Assembly: GCA_000165345.1 (NCBI GenBank)
Contig: CM000431.1
Span: 640,001-704,000, forward strand
Reading direction: 5' to 3'
Length of the DNA: 64,000 nt
Part shown: positions 35,601 through 42,783 of the stretch, piece after piece
How positions within the stretch are numbered: the stretch's first letter is position 1
Layout of the letters: each line of letters begins with the position of its first letter
Position numbers and translations under genes: made by a program
Notes under the pieces: generated by a model
What the model was told of the DNA's origin: nothing
What the model saw: the letters and a program-made list of their open reading frames with translations, nothing else
Databases searched by the model: none

Positions 35601-38037
35601 GATTGCTTTGAATCTTTTCTTCATTAAAGATTATATTCTTATCATATATTGGAGTGCTTTTATAATTCAATAAAAAACTTAAAAAATGTAATGGAGAGTT
35701 GGACAATAGTGTTTTTTCAATGATATTTAGCAAGGAACTATTTTCAGTAGATATTCCGTTCAAGAATTTACTATTTTTTATTAAGTAAAATGATATTTTA
35801 ATTGTTTCTTCGTCAATATATTCTTTGTTTGAAACAGAGTTGAATAAAATTTCAATTGCGAGATTTTGCGACCCATAAATTATTAGAGTTGTTATTTGGA
35901 GTTTAATTATGCTCTTCCAAATAAGATGATCCTCATTTATGCATACAAATTTTTTGATTATAAATTTAAGTTTATCCAAAATTAAAGAGTGCTTATTGAT
36001 AATTGCTAAAGAAGGATTAGAAAGAAATATATCCATAAGTATTTTTTCCTTGTTATTTTCAAAAATAATTGAATTTGGATGGTAATAACTGAATTCAAAA
36101 TTATTACACAAGTTTGGACATAGCTTTTCAAACTCAATTTTTGAACAGGCTCTAAATATTGGGTAAATTTCCGTTTCATTGGGAGAATATTTAACCAACT
36201 CATTAATTATATTAGAAATGAAAATATGTTCGCATATTAGTTTAAATTTAAAATCCATAGTTTCATTATTTAATACAATTTCTTTGTTCAATTTATTTAT
36301 AAATATTGTAAAATTATACAGAGGTGGTTCCAAATACTCGTAGATACGATTGAATAATTGTAAAAAAAGATCCATAAACTCACATTCATTCGTGGATGTG
36401 ATATATTGCTTAATTTGCTTCACTATATCTCCAGTAGATATTTCGATATTTAGGTTTTCTACGATCAACAATTTCTCTAATAAATAAAAAATTAAACCGA
36501 GTAAACTTCCTAAAGGGTAATTTGGAAGCCTTATTGAATCGGTTATTAAATTATATATTGATATTACTGTATTTAATAAATCAGTTGTATAAAATCTTGG
36601 AAGTTTGCTAATTAAGTTGATCAGGAAACATTCAGCATTTATTGGATTGTACAAAACCTTAAATATATCATAAATTGTAATTTCATGAATAACGCTTATT
36701 GGAATCTCTCTATATAAATCAATAAATAACTGATGTTTTTCAATAGACTCAATGGAAAAAAATATATTATTTAGCCAGTTTCTAAAGCTTTGAATAGATT
36801 GTGGGCCTTGATATAAAACTGAAACATTTTTGCAAAAGGGACAGCAAATATAATCAGATGGTATGAGACTATTATCAATTTTCAAAATTGATGAATTTAA
36901 CTTCTGAATAGTTAGATCCTTTTTAAGGTATTTAATTATTATTGAGCTCTTAGGGGTACATTCATAAACTTCGTCTATATATTCTTGTATCTCTAATGCA
37001 TTTACATTTAACAATGGCGAATCCCTACCATTAATGCATAACAAAATAAATTGAATTACTCTGATTGGACATGCAATGAATCTGTTCGTTAAATTGTTAG
37101 TTAGTTTACTATTTTTGACGAGTATTTTAGATATTTTACAAAATAAATCGATCGTAATATTATCCTTCTCATCAAATAAATAATTTATTACTGACTCTTC
37201 TAAAGGAACATGCGCATTCGAATATAAAGAACTTGTTAAATTATTCTCACATTTGTAAATAAAGTTAGCATCTTTATAATAAAATTGCTGAAAATATCCT
37301 GAATAGCAGTACTTTTGAACCAAAGGTTGGCATCTTAATATCTTTGTAGATTCAAAGCCATCTTTATTTAATTGCTTATCATAAAGAGAATTTAAATAAG
37401 AAATACAATAATAGCTTCCAAATAAACTTGAAAATAGCTTACTGAGTTCTGAATATGAAGAATCTGAAAACTGTTCTATTACCAACTTGAATCTATTTAT
37501 AGGTGAATTGATAATAAACTTTATAGGGTCCAATATTTTCTTACAAAATTTTATATTTCTTTCAAAGGCAATGCAATATTGCTCCAATATAGAATAGAAA
37601 GAATAAAGCACTATTATAGAGTCGAAATGAAAAATCAAATGTTTTTCTTGTAAATTATTTAGCAAAATACTTTGATCTGCGATTTCAAAACCTAAGTGCT
37701 CGATTATAAATGTTAAAAATGGCAATGCAAAATCACTAATATTTAATGTATTTTTTACTATATGAAAGCAGCGTTCAATAGACCATTGAGATATGCTTTC
37801 AATAGAGTCATGGAATGTATTCTGTTCATTACTAAATAAATGGTTGTCTTCATAACTATCTCCAATTTGTACATTTGTTGGCTTAGGTATTATATGCTTA
37901 TATTGATCGATATGAAGTGTTTCTGGAATAGAGTTTAGGATTAATTTCCAATATATTCTAAGTTCCGGGTCATTAAATAGTAAGGTTAAGTCATCAATTC
38001 GACATTCTGCTGCAGCTATCAATGCAACCTCCAACAT
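32674..38037 (-). CDS. Giant hypothetical protein, 1787 aa, Ile/Leu/Asn/Lys-rich, probably alpha-solenoid.
   Basis: 5.4-kb uninterrupted ORF with an ATG at 38035-38037. Confidence 0.7.
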   Translation of the reverse strand: MLEVALIAAAECRIDDLTLLFNDPELRIYWKLILNSIPETLHIDQYKHIIPKPTNVQIGDSYEDNHLFSNEQNTFHDSIESISQWSIERCFHIVKNTLNISDFALPFLTFIIEHLGFEIADQSILLNNLQEKHLIFHFDSIIVLYSFYSILEQYCIAFERNIKFCKKILDPIKFIINSPINRFKLVIEQFSDSSYSELSKLFSSLFGSYYCISYLNSLYDKQLNKDGFESTKILRCQPLVQKYCYSGYFQQFYYKDANFIYKCENNLTSSLYSNAHVPLEESVINYLFDEKDNITIDLFCKISKILVKNSKLTNNLTNRFIACPIRVIQFILLCINGRDSPLLNVNALEIQEYIDEVYECTPKSSIIIKYLKKDLTIQKLNSSILKIDNSLIPSDYICCPFCKNVSVLYQGPQSIQSFRNWLNNIFFSIESIEKHQLFIDLYREIPISVIHEITIYDIFKVLYNPINAECFLINLISKLPRFYTTDLLNTVISIYNLITDSIRLPNYPLGSLLGLIFYLLEKLLIVENLNIEISTGDIVKQIKQYITSTNECEFMDLFLQLFNRIYEYLEPPLYNFTIFINKLNKEIVLNNETMDFKFKLICEHIFISNIINELVKYSPNETEIYPIFRACSKIEFEKLCPNLCNNFEFSYYHPNSIIFENNKEKILMDIFLSNPSLAIINKHSLILDKLKFIIKKFVCINEDHLIWKSIIKLQITTLIIYGSQNLAIEILFNSVSNKEYIDEETIKISFYLIKNSKFLNGISTENSSLLNIIEKTLLSNSPLHFLSFLLNYKSTPIYDKNIIFNEEKIQSNLEKCFSSSYYYTVKDSNYENTIFDLFFNNQFIKSDLRYPDLVFNNFNKYDLLIYCSADLLFNNGYKSKLIINSANVNQRTKILICLSLISILSIKNLLPRSLSSIKSLLSIVSTIRSYIQIIHKVRALVSTKVNISKLLEYEEKVPIYLIKFNSDFSLKRWKMFLDILPFSDILPLLHMIERIYIRNNSCKKTNLISYLEIYYLTENLITNYEYKIPVISEHHIKVFLNHPMYCYKALLYIYTQSLEQESIRHVAVIIHLLVLKFLTIKFDQAKINDIHLLVKNDQFRKFTKLFKLFPKYKALLIKQIIAKEKSITNLLNFSKIWNNYWLVLKFLKSINQNLISIFSFELLYYIFLKNERFPVKTYKNLILSDGSCISHILNDLLKNLSKDADLTIKFVEKLQNNKHKLDIITLIINHLSKDSQYDEQKKLFVYLNNSLLTTKIILYLPNFENKIGLQIVTYNQILKLILDLFMDSNYYSINILIFNILRPLKINFFELLIEAIMLYLNQVIESCNNTSTEFFDFIKLIFKKENSSLFSNVDGNFCDFLYKIYNGILYNMESIHFSVIFSIELVSRKLFNVTLLNNLTNKVIANINSLTAKMNIDNNFSSLYECLNGISKLAFDQYCSKKLNHIICDILYLLLQYTYVLDRVKISVFDENMQIRDSDNDKPLLECTISHKKIISEFALNMLSFILSISDERQFLKYWFVFGETLIEFNDKVIFFDLNKKKLFIGLNSSFKKHILNSITSVRMKEILASKYYKPSSYTTLELICCLNIILNSASYLFLGTRLFSNLIFPILMNTKREKDNSSIHIGKRICNVLNIRYYDTEELTIIGVFLRTLLIYKKKLINYLIPQLFALKSQNIVSEMVASESHILRYSHISSKYTYKILSKMFDKFYYTNFDSIRLEIENEISSDNMQNYLNSANGNILDSGDMNFFSENMYQRLLTKFYTFLFGRKHHFLEFKLVEGKINII

Positions 38038-38203
38038 TTTATATTGATTTAATTGAGTTCAATAGTGGGGGTATTTGAGAAAGCATTAAACCGCATAATG
38101 CAATTCGAATCGTCGGAAATAATATATAATTATCGCTTTTACCGCCAACTAAGTTTGACAATTTACCAATAAATTCCTAGAGGCACTAAGAACAATTATA
38201 AGT

Positions 38204-38815
38204 ATGGTTGTTCATACTGAAATAATTCAAACAAGCAATCTAGACTTAGCAAAACAGATTTTATCAGAGGAACACGAGATTTCGGGTGAGATTTTTTGGT
38301 CTTTGCTGTTTTGGAAAATGCCAGAGTTATTTTTTTTATCAGTTTCAAAATCAACGCAAATTTCAAAGGAACAGCTTTCTAATTCATTGAACAAAATTAT
38401 ATTAAATGATTTCAGAGATGCATTCAACTCAATTATAATAATTTTGGCAAAACTTACTGATTTAATAGAGATACAAACTATCTTGCCTAATGAGTCTAAC
38501 TCATTAAATAATACTTCTATTCCAAATCTAACAGAAGTCATATTTCTATACACTACTATTATCTACACCATATTCCCATACTTTAATGAAGAGATATCTC
38601 TTATAGAATCTCAGGGAATTCAACTTCTTCCGCTGCTTAGTAAAGCTAAAAAAACAGTAAACAAATTCAGCTTGATTTACAAAGATCTCGATAGAATAAT
38701 TGAAAAGATCAGCCAGATTCATGAAATCAAACGTGGACTACTTAAGGGGGTCCTTAGTGGAATTGCAAACCAAATTACGCAGGTACCTATAATTAAGCAA
38801 CTAACATTTGAATAA
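38204..38815 (+). CDS. Hypothetical protein, 203 aa.
   Basis: ORF with an ATG; no recognisable domain. Confidence 0.45.
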   Translation: MVVHTEIIQTSNLDLAKQILSEEHEISGEIFWSLLFWKMPELFFLSVSKSTQISKEQLSNSLNKIILNDFRDAFNSIIIILAKLTDLIEIQTILPNESNSLNNTSIPNLTEVIFLYTTIIYTIFPYFNEEISLIESQGIQLLPLLSKAKKTVNKFSLIYKDLDRIIEKISQIHEIKRGLLKGVLSGIANQITQVPIIKQLTFE

Positions 38816-38875
38816 TATTAGTGATTATTACGTGTTTATAAGCATTAATAATTCTATTAAATTTGTTTGCATTAG

Positions 38876-39442
38876 CTACTTGTTATTTATTTCTTCTTGA
38901 GATTCCTTTACGCATTTCTGTACCATTTTATAGTATTCTAATTTGTTCTCAATATAAAGTTGTGCAGCTTCTGCATTTGCAGGAGAATTAGGGTTCGGGT
39001 CATTTAATAAGGATTGAATACAGGTAAGAATCGAGCATACATCAAGAACAGGGCTCCAGTGCTGTTGCAAAATATCTAGGCATATATTTCCATTGTTATA
39101 TATATTCGGATGGAAAACTCTTGTCACGAATCTTATCTTAGGAGCTTTATTGGGGTATTCTTCAGTAAATCTAATATCAAGTTTGAATATTCCACCTTCC
39201 CATACTGTTCCCTCAGGTCTATAATAATTAATTCATGATAAAATATCTAAAGTTGAGAAACTAACCCAAAAATTACCGCATCCCAATGTAACATCTCATC
39301 GTCAATAGGTGTTCCGCAGATACCATGCGGTGGATTATTTGAAAGTTTTGCGAAGTCTCTTAGAAGCCTACGTTTCTATCAAGTATAAAGTGAAAAATAG
39401 TTAATTAAATATAATAAATAAACCTACGGCTTGAAAAGACAT
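38876..39442 (-). CDS. RAD6: Ubiquitin-conjugating enzyme E2 Rad6/UBC2 (UBE2A/B ortholog). Three exons: complement(join(38876..39218,39266..39375,39428..39442)).
   Basis: The spliced product MSFQA|[37 protein letters not shown]|[60 protein letters not shown]...[14 protein letters not shown] aligns residue-for-residue with Rad6 (MSTPARRRLMRDFKRM...[20 protein letters not shown]...). Introns are 52 nt (GTAGGT...GATAG) and 47 nt (GTTAGT...TTATAG). The ORF track shows only the last exon, from a GTG. Confidence 0.85.
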
Positions 39443-39507
39443 ATTTTATCACAAATTTATTACTAATAATTCCGCGGCTCTGTAACAGTTTTCATATTTT
39501 CATAAAA

Positions 39508-40029
39508 ATGGATTCACTCTTTTCAAGAATAAATATTATCTTTTGCTCATTTGTAATTTCTTTGGCATGCTGTGCAGTTGGGAACTTTGCATCTTCATTT
39601 ATTTACAAAGAACTCCCAATAGGAGATACTGAATTACACTCCATACTTGACTTAGGAATTAGCCCATACTTAAGGAATGATCAAGCAAATATTGCGCTCA
39701 ACATTAATACAAACCTTTCTAATTCTCTGAACTGGAATACAAACCAAATCTTCACATTTATATATGTAAGCTATAAAAATAAACACCAAAATAATTACGT
39801 AACAGTTTGGGATGATATTTTTTCAAAAAAAAAAAACAAAACAAGTTTTTCAATGAAAGGAGTGATAAATAAATATCCAATTAGGGATATCGGGAGAAAC
39901 CTTAGAAGCAAAAGTATAAATCTTAATATCGCATTCTGCTACATGCCAATTGTGGGTAGCATTAAATATCACCATTTAAAAGTGTCGACTGAAAAAAAAT
40001 TGCCAGTGAATTATTTTCAATATAAATGA
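39508..40029 (+). CDS. Signal peptidase complex subunit 3 (SPCS3/Spc3).
   Basis: N-terminal signal anchor MDSLFSRINIIFCSFVISLA (compare SPC22/23 MNTVLSRANSLFAF) and VTVWDDIF (compare VVLWDKIV); the size, 173 aa, fits. Confidence 0.55.
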   Translation: MDSLFSRINIIFCSFVISLACCAVGNFASSFIYKELPIGDTELHSILDLGISPYLRNDQANIALNINTNLSNSLNWNTNQIFTFIYVSYKNKHQNNYVTVWDDIFSKKKNKTSFSMKGVINKYPIRDIGRNLRSKSINLNIAFCYMPIVGSIKYHHLKVSTEKKLPVNYFQYK

Positions 40030-40104
40030 TTGTATTAACAATAAATAGTCAATATTACTTCTAAATTACAAAACTTATCAATAATTTCCTAGGCTATTAA
40101 GTGG

Positions 40105-42000
40105 TTATTTTTTAGTAAATACTTTGATTTCTTTCTTGAAAAAATAGATTGAAGCTGATAAAATAAAAATATAGAACATATTTTTCAATTTTAGTACTGG
40201 GGAAACTAACTGGAAGAAAGAAGGCTCATCAGAACTATTAAAAAGGCAATTCTTGTATAGGTTATCGTTGTTATAATTTGAACAAATTTGAGGTAGTCTA
40301 CTCCAGTAAATTTCCTCTTCAAAAACTTTTTGATAAACGTTGGTTAATGTTTTGAGAATAGAAAACCTATCACCGTCAAAATCTATCAGTAAAAATTCTG
40401 AAGCAGCTACGTTGCGTGAAAGCTCCAAAAAGCCTTTAATCTTAGACATGCTAGGAATTCCCCTAACTTTGCTCAATAGAGCAACTTGAACAGGCTGGAT
40501 AAATAATTCTCCAATATCTTCGTCGGCCTCACTATCAATCATATTACTTGCATTTCCAGAATTCCTTCTAATATTGATATATTTTTGACGAGAAATATCT
40601 AGCGCTCTAACAATTTCTTGATTTTGAGCCATTCCATCTAATCTATCATGTATAATAACTAAACAAATTATTCTATTTAAACTGTTAGACTCGCATAGAT
40701 TCTTAGCATTACTGCTATCAATAAAAGGTACATAAATCTGTTGCGTATAAAGCAGCGACTGTTCTAGTTTCTGTACTAAGGAGGTGGGCCTATTGATAAA
40801 GTTAAATAATTGATCATCTATTTGCCTGGTTTGCAAAACATCTTCATTTGAAAAGCCCCCAAGTGGAATGATAATCTCTGGAGTTAAGTCTGAATCCTTA
40901 AATATGTGCGGAAGCGCAATTAAGTATGGTTTATCATATTCTATTCCCCATTTATAAAGTATGCTATTTTTTTTGTTATTTTGATAATATGCTAACTCGA
41001 AAGTTGAGCTCCATCTTAATGCAAATGAACGAATTAATAATGTTGGTGAAGGTTTGTTAGAAAGAATTAATATTTTTGGCCTATACAAATTATTCTTTTT
41101 TAACCATCCAGTTAACGATTTCTCTGAATTTAATAGACCCAAAGTCATCGGAAAAGAGTTGGAGAGAAATTCCAAGAAAGATTCTAAACTTGGATCATAA
41201 ATTTTGGAATACATTTCGTATTGGTATCCACTTGTGATAATAAAAATTGCAGGAAATACCTTTACGCTTAATGGTAGTTTTTTAAGTAATGAATTTTCTT
41301 TTTTGGCGTGAATTCTTCCAAATTTGTAATATTTCCCCATTTCTTCAATAGATTCCTCCCAAATAGAAGAAAAATGGTGACAAAGTTCATCATGATCCGT
41401 ATAAACCTGTATAACCCATGAATTAGTTTTCTGAAGCATTACCAAGTTGTCAAAGTTATCGGATGTTAAGGTAACTGCAGCTGAAGGAATTATCTCAATC
41501 TCACCGCCTTGAGTAGTATCGTAAACTTGTCTTTTTTCATTATCACCCAGTATTTCATATGCTTTCGAAATATCTCTAAACTTCTCCAAGCACGGTTCAC
41601 AATCTGGATTTTTGTCAGGATGCCATACCAAGCTAAGCTTTCTGAATGCCTTTCTGATTTCTAAGTTAGATGATTTCTTTGTTACCCCCAAAACTTCGTA
41701 GTAATTCTTTTGGTTTTCATTTTTGTTTAGCTTCCCACTAATGCTGTAAAATTCTTCCCCTGCTCTTAAAATAATTGTGGAGATCAAAATACAAAGAATT
41801 AACAATAATATAGATAGATTTATTATTGTCTCCTTAAGTTCCGCCCATTTGAAACTTTGAAGGTAACTCAGTAAAGAATTTTGTGATGATTGAAACTTTT
41901 TCAAGTTATTCTCTGTGGTGCCATTAGTGTTCCCAAAATTAGCATTTCTCTGCAGTACAGAATTTAATTCTTGCTTATTGCTGCTTTTTTTTTTACCCAT
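40105..42000 (-). CDS. Membrane-anchored DnaJ (J-domain) protein with a thioredoxin-like luminal region (DNAJC10/C16-like).
   Basis: N-terminal TM helix, then J domain NYYEVLGVTKKSSNLEIRKAFRKLSLVWHPDKNPD...AYEILGDNEKRQVYD. Confidence 0.7.
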   Translation of the reverse strand: MGKKKSSNKQELNSVLQRNANFGNTNGTTENNLKKFQSSQNSLLSYLQSFKWAELKETIINLSILLLILCILISTIILRAGEEFYSISGKLNKNENQKNYYEVLGVTKKSSNLEIRKAFRKLSLVWHPDKNPDCEPCLEKFRDISKAYEILGDNEKRQVYDTTQGGEIEIIPSAAVTLTSDNFDNLVMLQKTNSWVIQVYTDHDELCHHFSSIWEESIEEMGKYYKFGRIHAKKENSLLKKLPLSVKVFPAIFIITSGYQYEMYSKIYDPSLESFLEFLSNSFPMTLGLLNSEKSLTGWLKKNNLYRPKILILSNKPSPTLLIRSFALRWSSTFELAYYQNNKKNSILYKWGIEYDKPYLIALPHIFKDSDLTPEIIIPLGGFSNEDVLQTRQIDDQLFNFINRPTSLVQKLEQSLLYTQQIYVPFIDSSNAKNLCESNSLNRIICLVIIHDRLDGMAQNQEIVRALDISRQKYINIRRNSGNASNMIDSEADEDIGELFIQPVQVALLSKVRGIPSMSKIKGFLELSRNVAASEFLLIDFDGDRFSILKTLTNVYQKVFEEEIYWSRLPQICSNYNNDNLYKNCLFNSSDEPSFFQLVSPVLKLKNMFYIFILSASIYFFKKEIKVFTKK

Positions 42001-42065: not shown

Positions 42066-42783
42066 ATGGAGGAAAATAATCAAATATCGCTTTCCCTTTT
42101 AACTTTTTTAAGATATGAGTATTTAAATTATTGTATAAACAAATCATCTGAATTAATTTCAGATGAAAAGAATTTTCAGACTGTAAAACACTCTAAAAAA
42201 CTGTCAATAAGTGGATTACAAGTTTGCAAAGACTCACTAATAAGAGAACTTTCTATGTCAACTCTCGAAGAATCTGGATTTTATTTGGGAATTAGATTAG
42301 TTGAAAGGTTAGTGACACGGTTATTCACTGCGCAGCAACACATACTTTAGATTATCAGTATTCCGCCACAGAATTTATGATCAAAAAGAAATAATTAAAT
42401 TTATTTGCAAAGACTTATGGAACTTCATATTTCTCAAACAAGCAGATAGGCTCAAGACAAACAGAAGAGTAAGTTAATATTCTAATTAATGTTTTGAAAC
42501 ACGTTTTCAGGGTGGTTACGCAATATTAGATAACGAGTTAATATGGCTTTCAAAACTGCCAAGCTCGATTAGCGCAAACTCTAGAAAAGTGCAATTTGAA
42601 CCAGCAATCAACGTCATTATTGTATGTGGAATTATCAGAGGAGCATTACAGCATTTAGGGCTTACGTGCTCAGTAGCAGCAGAAGTCAGCAAGATTCCTT
42701 CTTGTAAGTTATTGTCGCGTATATTTTATTTTAATTCAGTTTTAGGCACGTTTCAAATACGTGTATATGCCCCATCAAGGTAA
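42066..42783 (+). CDS. TRAPP complex subunit TRAPPC6/Trs33 (Bet3 family). Four exons: join(42066..42307,42351..42468,42511..42703,42746..42783).
   Basis: Spliced product: ...GFYLGIRLVE|RLSVFRHRIYDQKEIIKFICKDLWNFIFLKQADRLKTNRR|GGYAILDNELIWL...VIIVCGIIRGALQHLGLTCSVAAEVSKIPS|CTFQIRVYAPSR*. It tracks human TRAPPC6B (MGFRVGQGLIERF...MKFICKDFW...NLRTNHQGIYVLQDN...FTCGLIRGGLSNLGIKSIVTAEVSSMPACKFQVMIQKL). Introns of 43, 42 and 42 nt (GTTAGT, GTAAGT, GTAAGT). The first acceptor could instead be 42371 (64-nt intron). The ORF track shows exons 1 and 3 as two unrelated ORFs. Confidence 0.75.

Follow-up and report, generated by a model that had tools for sequence, protein, structure and literature searches.

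Where does the rest of a gene lie when the only open reading frame (ORF) listed for it encodes part of a folded domain? This question is raised by a locus on the minus strand of the 64,000-nucleotide stretch of Cryptosporidium parvum DNA analyzed here (the window), for which the ORF list holds nothing but an 83-residue frame with a GTG start. The first-pass annotation, made from the sequence, had read this frame as the C-terminal half of a UBC fold and had restored the missing half by adding two upstream exons, one of them a five-codon exon carrying the ATG. Pfam coverage bears out the first statement, as the 83-residue fragment matches positions 68 to 139 of the 140-position UQ_con model and the spliced protein matches positions 1 to 139. 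The exon and intron coordinates and lengths that had been proposed were all exact, and splicing at these sites yields the very protein that had been quoted (Table 1). We hold it to be nearly certain that this is a three-exon gene, in which a pair of small GT-AG spliceosomal introns (52 and 47 nt) separates exons of 15, 110, and 343 nt.

Table 1. Features of the Rad6 locus and its surroundings, in window coordinates (on the minus strand, exons and introns are given in the direction of transcription)
Feature	Position	Strand	Description
Exon 1	39442..39428	-	15 nt, ATGTCTTTTCAAGCC; ATG at 39442..39440 plus four codons (MSFQA); ends in phase 0
Intron 1	39427..39376	-	52 nt; GTAGGT...GATAG (GTAGGTTT...TTGATAG); GC 17%
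Exon 2	39375..39266	-	110 nt; K6 to the first two bases of the Gly42 codon
Intron 2	39265..39219	-	47 nt; GTTAGT...TATAG (GTTAGTTT...TTATAG); GC 19%; phase 2, within the Gly42 codon
Exon 3	39218..38876	-	343 nt including the TAG stop (38878..38876); P43 to K155; carries the active site
HPN motif codons (His78-Pro79-Asn80)	39112..39104	-	Same residues at the same positions in UBE2A and Acrasis RAD6A
Catalytic Cys88 codon (TGC)	39082..39080	-	Aligned with UBE2A Cys88, no gaps
Listed ORF	38876..39127	-	Within exon 3
Rival exon MKT	ATG at 39495	-	9 nt; 111-nt intron
Rival exon MECNS	ATG at 39644	-	15 nt; 254-nt intron, antisense within the SPC3 gene
203-aa hypothetical protein	38204..38815	+	Convergent with the Rad6 gene
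Spacer between stop codons	38816..38875		60 bp, Rad6 gene to 203-aa hypothetical gene
Spacer between start codons	39443..39507		65 bp, Rad6 gene to SPC3 gene
Signal peptidase complex subunit 3 (SPC3; Pfam SPC22)	39508..40029	+	Divergent from the Rad6 gene
DnaJ gene	40105..42000	-	Upstream, same strand as the Rad6 gene
TRAPP-domain gene	42066..42783	+	Three genes away; introns 42308-42350 (43 nt), 42469-42510 (42 nt), and 42704-42745 (42 nt)

Several features of the DNA itself fit this model. The spliced coding sequence (CDS) of 468 nt is in frame, contains no internal stops, and encodes 155 amino acids, with exon 2 supplying the N-terminal helix and the first strands of the UBC fold. Read without splicing, the frame that begins at the exon 1 ATG ends after 13 amino acids, and removing the two GT..AG introns restores an uninterrupted and conserved reading frame, which is the behavior expected of spliceosomal introns. 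In-frame stop codons directly upstream of exon 2 mean that this exon has no possible 5' extension. Within a window that is AT-rich as a whole (30.8% G+C), the GC content of the introns is 17 to 19%, versus 35 to 42% for the exons. Introns of this kind and size are usual in the neighborhood, as seen in the nearby TRAPP-domain gene, whose three introns have the donors GTTAGT, GTAAGT, and GTAAGT and whose removal gives the annotated 196-amino-acid product. The locus was also surveyed for other kinds of product. No plus-strand ORF across the gene is longer than 43 amino acids, and an Rfam scan of positions 38000 to 40500 at E ≤ 1 returned only two sub-threshold chance hits for noncoding RNA, both of them outside the gene.

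The spliced protein had been described as a complete Rad6-type E2, nearly collinear with yeast and human Rad6 and including the catalytic Cys, and its comparison with UBE2A, UBE2B, and Rad6 had been proposed as a check. Each of these points is borne out. The Pfam family PF00179 (UQ_con) matches residues 8 to 144 with a score of 171.7 bits (cutoff, 27) and an E value of 8.5e-51, thereby covering the full domain. A phmmer search of PDB sequences places the Rad6 family first by a clear margin: human UBE2A is matched with an E value of 1.9e-61 and 62% identity (92 of 149 residues) in a gapless alignment of residues 1 to 149 to residues 1 to 149, and yeast Rad6 is matched with an E value of 4e-52 from residues 1 to 151 to residues 1 to 151. 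The best 17 distinct PDB sequences (174 to 210 bits) are UBE2A, UBE2B, yeast Rad6/Ubc2, or entries labeled simply as E2 enzyme. HPN78-80 and Cys88, the motif and downstream active-site cysteine by which the E2 superfamily is recognized, stand at their UBE2A positions.

Placement within the Rad6 subfamily follows from finer detail. An N-terminal RRRLxRDF, Gln93, and an NPNSPAN segment with Ser120 are diagnostic of the Rad6/UBE2A subfamily. The C. parvum protein shares R7, R8, R11, H78, P79, N80, C88, Q93, W96, and N119-S120-P121 with UBE2A, and R7, R8, R11, Q93, N119, S120, and P121, which bear on subfamily membership, are found in the RAD6A protein of Acrasis kona as well. Relatives in the databases that are about 60 to 64% identical bear the names UBE2A, RAD6A, or E2 2. 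Every sequence-level test for Rad6/Ubc2 was thus passed, which argues for membership in the subfamily. On this evidence the product is very probably the C. parvum orthologue of Rad6/Ubc2/UBE2A, a 155-amino-acid class I (core-domain-only) E2.

Comparison with individual family members shows where the parasite protein departs from them. The human proteins UBE2A and UBE2B (HR6A/HR6B; PDB 6cyo, 8iej, and 1jas) share HPN78-80, Cys88, Gln93, and Ser120 with it and are likewise core-domain-only E2s without an acidic tail; relative to UBE2A, the last six residues of the C. parvum protein differ, and there are surface changes such as A14 for K14 and H22 for A22. Saccharomyces cerevisiae Rad6/Ubc2 (PDB 1ayz) is collinear with the parasite protein over residues 1 to 151 but is longer (169 to 172 residues in PDB entries). 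In yeast the protein ends in a polyacidic tail, and the gene is intronless. In contrast, the C. parvum protein ends in ...ESQEEINNK, with four acidic residues among its last 20, and lacks a polyacidic tail. Acrasis kona RAD6A shows the same 62% identity as the human protein.

The three-exon structure proposed for this gene is conserved across the eight Cryptosporidium species whose loci were compared (C. parvum together with C. hominis, C. canis, C. ubiquitum, C. felis, C. bovis, C. ryanae, and C. andersoni). Exon 1 is 15 nt and exon 2 is 110 nt in every one of them, while intron 1 ranges from 48 to 58 nt and intron 2 from 44 to 54 nt, with GT..AG borders throughout and with lengths that are not tied to multiples of three. 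Intron position and phase are therefore constant and intron length and sequence variable, with no codon periodicity, as is the signature of spliceosomal introns. A GTNNGTT donor is conserved in both introns, and the intron 2 donor reads GTTAGTTT in seven of the eight species. Exon 1 encodes MSFQA, MSLQA, MHLQA, MNLQA, or MQSQA, depending on the species, and the MSFQA of C. parvum fits the M-S-x-x-A of UBE2A; this 15-nt ATG exon is the sole first-exon candidate common to all eight. Without splicing, the frame from the ATG halts after 8 to 19 codons in seven of eight species.

Substitution patterns tell exons and introns apart. Exon identity to C. parvum is 79 to 99% at codon positions 1 and 2 and 42 to 66% at codon position 3, except in the near-identical C. 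hominis (96%). Such an excess of conservation at the first two positions over the third is a signature of purifying selection on coding sequence, and all three exons are under purifying selection. The introns of the five species that diverge most (C. canis, C. felis, C. bovis, C. ryanae, and C. andersoni) are identical to those of C. parvum at fractions of 0.53 to 0.71, near the level obtained with shuffled introns (mean, 0.54; maximum, 0.63).

Alternative gene models were enumerated as stop-free ATG..TAG models in positions 38876 to 39900 with zero to two GT-AG introns of 20 to 300 nt, and the three-exon model ranked first of 2,075 by global alignment with human UBE2A (score, 496). The intron-free model was rejected as truncated (16 amino acids), as was the best one-intron model, which starts at Met33 and yields an N-terminally truncated protein of 123 amino acids. 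It could be argued that the gene nevertheless has only two coding exons, with its start inside exon 2 and the 15-nt exon a coincidence, given that the two resulting proteins, a 150-residue "partial" one beginning with KRRLL and the 123-residue one beginning at Met33, are present in public annotation (XP_626827.1 and C. hominis PPS93673.1, respectively) and that the latter is also the top single-intron ATG model. However, exon 2 contains no ATG before Met33 and stops lie immediately upstream in frame, so that the 150-residue model lacks a start codon, hence its "partial" flag. A start at Met33 would remove the N-terminal helix, yet residues 6 to 32 are collinear with UBE2A and alike across the eight species, all of which also have the 15-nt exon and its donor, in the pattern M-x-x-Q-A. 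We consider a two-exon gene exceedingly improbable.

A different 5' exon might instead be joined to the same exon 2 acceptor. Homology alone separates exon 1 only weakly from rival micro-exons, because five residues add little to the score: the stop-free models that begin with MECNS and MKT score 489 and 484, slightly below the 496 of the three-exon model with MSFQA. The choice of exon 1 is accordingly one made on cross-species conservation, and here the candidates part company. MKT and MECNS occur in C. parvum and C. hominis alone; the other six species lack both. Their donors (GTTACAGA and GTATCTCC) deviate from the GTNNGTT pattern of this gene, against GTTAGT and GTAAGT in the nearby TRAPP-domain gene, and MECNS would in addition sit within the coding region of SPC3 on the opposite strand. 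We rejected both exons as unconserved among the eight species and as having poor donors, and we see almost no chance that either of them begins the gene. As for the class of the product, the HPN...C core is common to all UBC-core proteins, and UBE2D-family chains are strong matches as well (about 1e-39), so an E2 of another class, such as a UBE2D/Ubc4-like enzyme, has to be weighed against a Rad6 orthologue. The first PDB match named for another class is UBE2D3 (139.6 bits; E value, 6.6e-40), and a gap of 34 to 70 bits divides this best UBE2D chain from the top 17 chains, among which is every listed UBE2A, UBE2B, and Rad6/Ubc2 entry. Since the UBE2A alignment is gapless from end to end, NPNSPAN with Ser120 is identical to UBE2A, and the relatives at 60 to 64% identity are named UBE2A, RAD6A, or E2 2, we judge a different class to be highly improbable.

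The Rad6 gene with exon 1 at its 5' end sits in a compact neighborhood. The order DnaJ, SPC3, UBC, and 203-amino-acid hypothetical gene is kept in C. parvum and the seven other Cryptosporidium species, and this conserved synteny supports a single conserved locus. The tight spacing (Table 1) leaves no space for a further upstream coding exon outside the neighboring gene. The spacers are so short that the promoters of the divergent Rad6 and SPC3 genes would be shared or overlap and that the 3' untranslated regions of the convergent pair probably overlap. Two tiny upstream ATGs, at positions 39503 and 39495 on the Rad6 strand, lie within the 65-bp spacer. A discrepancy with an old model is also found next door, as SPC3 has 173 amino acids in current annotations versus 203 in the "partial" Iowa II model (EAK89261.1/XP_626828.1).

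Current C. parvum annotations already contain this gene with its three exons and its product; this is an ordinary housekeeping gene, and nothing about it is new. The exact 155-amino-acid sequence has been deposited for C. parvum four times as "ubiquitin conjugating enzyme E2" (QOY42619.1, KAL5369618.1, WKS77013.1, and WRK31504.1), and the gene model in these records does not differ from ours. In GCA_048859185.1 the annotated gene span of 567 nt is base-identical to positions 38876 to 39442 of the window, with four mismatches across the surrounding 10.5 kb. QOY records of neighboring genes bear CPATCC_ locus tags, from which we infer that QOY42619.1 belongs to the IOWA-ATCC re-annotation, whose introns are described in general terms, without reference to this gene, as 100% supported by transcriptome sequencing (RNA-seq) (PMC8744675). 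This statement comes nearest to the RNA-seq junctions that had been proposed as a check, and the support it lends is indirect. Correct models (155 to 156 amino acids) are also available for C. meleagridis, C. tyzzeri, C. canis, C. bovis, C. ryanae, and C. ubiquitum. A literature search on the identifiers XP_626827 and EAK89297 and on the CPATCC tags found no papers, and in the 2008 survey of apicomplexan ubiquitin systems (PMC2408969), Rad6 appears only in the introduction and reference list and is absent from the tables.

The first-pass annotation had also called the five-codon first exon an annotation trap, and the public record shows that it has been one. The Iowa II model (XP_626827.1/EAK89297.1, "protein with UBC domain, ubiquitin conjugating enzyme E2"; 150 amino acids, "partial") describes the same locus with the second and third exons and intron 2 between them and lacks precisely the 15-nt exon 1 and with it the start codon, so that the protein begins at KRRLL. 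Four other wrong models are carried by C. hominis and C. felis. The C. hominis UdeA01 model (CUV05176.1; 150 amino acids, "partial") has the same fault as the Iowa II model, and PPS93673.1, also from C. hominis, has 123 amino acids and starts at Met33. In a third C. hominis model (OLQ17182.1/PPA65193.1; 751 amino acids), the upstream, same-strand DnaJ gene is joined to the exon 2 acceptor, skipping SPC3 on the opposite strand, and in C. felis, intron 1 is read through to give 172 amino acids. Such faults fit the history of C. parvum annotation, in which the share of genes with introns rose from 4.3% in the original annotation to 10.8% after re-annotation with RNA-seq (PMC4637869). Later re-annotation has already repaired the missing exon 1 of the Iowa II model.

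These faulty models have consequences of their own. The C. hominis DnaJ-Rad6 chimera corresponds to positions 38876 to 42000 on the minus strand of the window. It is because of this chimera that a protein cluster at 90% identity mixes DnaJ and UBC proteins under a 631-amino-acid DnaJ representative, which hid the C. parvum protein's own cluster from the homology search. In C. felis, intron 1 is in frame and free of stops; its strongest-looking acceptor, TTGTAG, would make a 43-nt intron and shift the frame, and the acceptors that keep the frame are GAG (48 nt, leading into KRRRLL) and AAG (51 nt, leading into RRRLL). Wherever the older models have been carried into phylogenomics, proteomics databases, or drug-target lists, the E2 they represent is truncated, fused, or interrupted. 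The value of the locus is thus that of a quality-control case, in which a five-codon exon missing from the original Iowa II annotation was recovered by a reader without tools.

With respect to function, knowledge of the family suggests that an E1 would pass ubiquitin to Cys88 as a thioester, with Asn80 of the HPN motif assisting catalysis, and that the ubiquitin would then move to substrates with the help of RING E3s. The most plausible role would be mono-ubiquitination of histone H2B together with a Bre1-type ligase, since the 2008 survey (PMC2408969) lists a BRE1 homologue for C. parvum, cgd2_880. Rad18- or Ubr1-type ligases might also serve as partners if the parasite has such ligases; the text of that survey (PMC2408969) makes no mention of RAD18 or UBR1. 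Little is at stake here for discovery, as few enzymes of the ubiquitin system are better understood than the Rad6-type E2s.

The introns invite some more speculative readings. Because exon 1 is fixed at 15 nt throughout the genus and the divergent neighbor is only 65 bp away, intron 1 might hold regulatory signals. In C. felis, retention of intron 1 or use of an alternative acceptor could produce an E2 isoform with an insertion of 16 to 17 residues in the N-terminal helix. Regarding intron age, introns are present in three of the Rad6 genes compared (Acrasis, Ciona, and the ciliate Pseudocohnilembus), and the fourth, that of Ichthyophthirius, is intronless. An intron after codon 5 was found in none of these four and, in this small sample, is seen only in Cryptosporidium. 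The position of intron 2, in contrast, is shared with Acrasis alone, the genes of Ciona and Pseudocohnilembus having no intron there: the matching intron of Acrasis RAD6A lies at CDS nt 125, in phase 2 within the Gly42 codon. An Acrasis intron with the same position and phase implies that the intron 2 position is not confined to Cryptosporidium and is possibly ancient, and an otherwise intron-poor genome may have kept an ancient eukaryotic intron in the form of intron 2. Taken as one joint reading, in which intron 1 and exon 1 are more than a structural detail, C. felis makes an isoform, and, separately, intron 2 is ancient, these proposals strike us as very unlikely.

The same comparison yielded two minor observations on other lineages. 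Ciona, the only animal gene examined, has its introns at positions other than those of Cryptosporidium (CDS nt 44, 241, and 330), and the one at nt 241, in phase 1, is common to Ciona and Acrasis and is lacking in Cryptosporidium. The Ichthyophthirius multifiliis Rad6 model, a 149-amino-acid "partial" sequence, starts with ACKRRLL, and directly upstream lies an in-frame ATG TAG GCT, which reads M-Q-A in the ciliate code. The intronless gene of this ciliate is therefore probably complete, encoding 151 amino acids.
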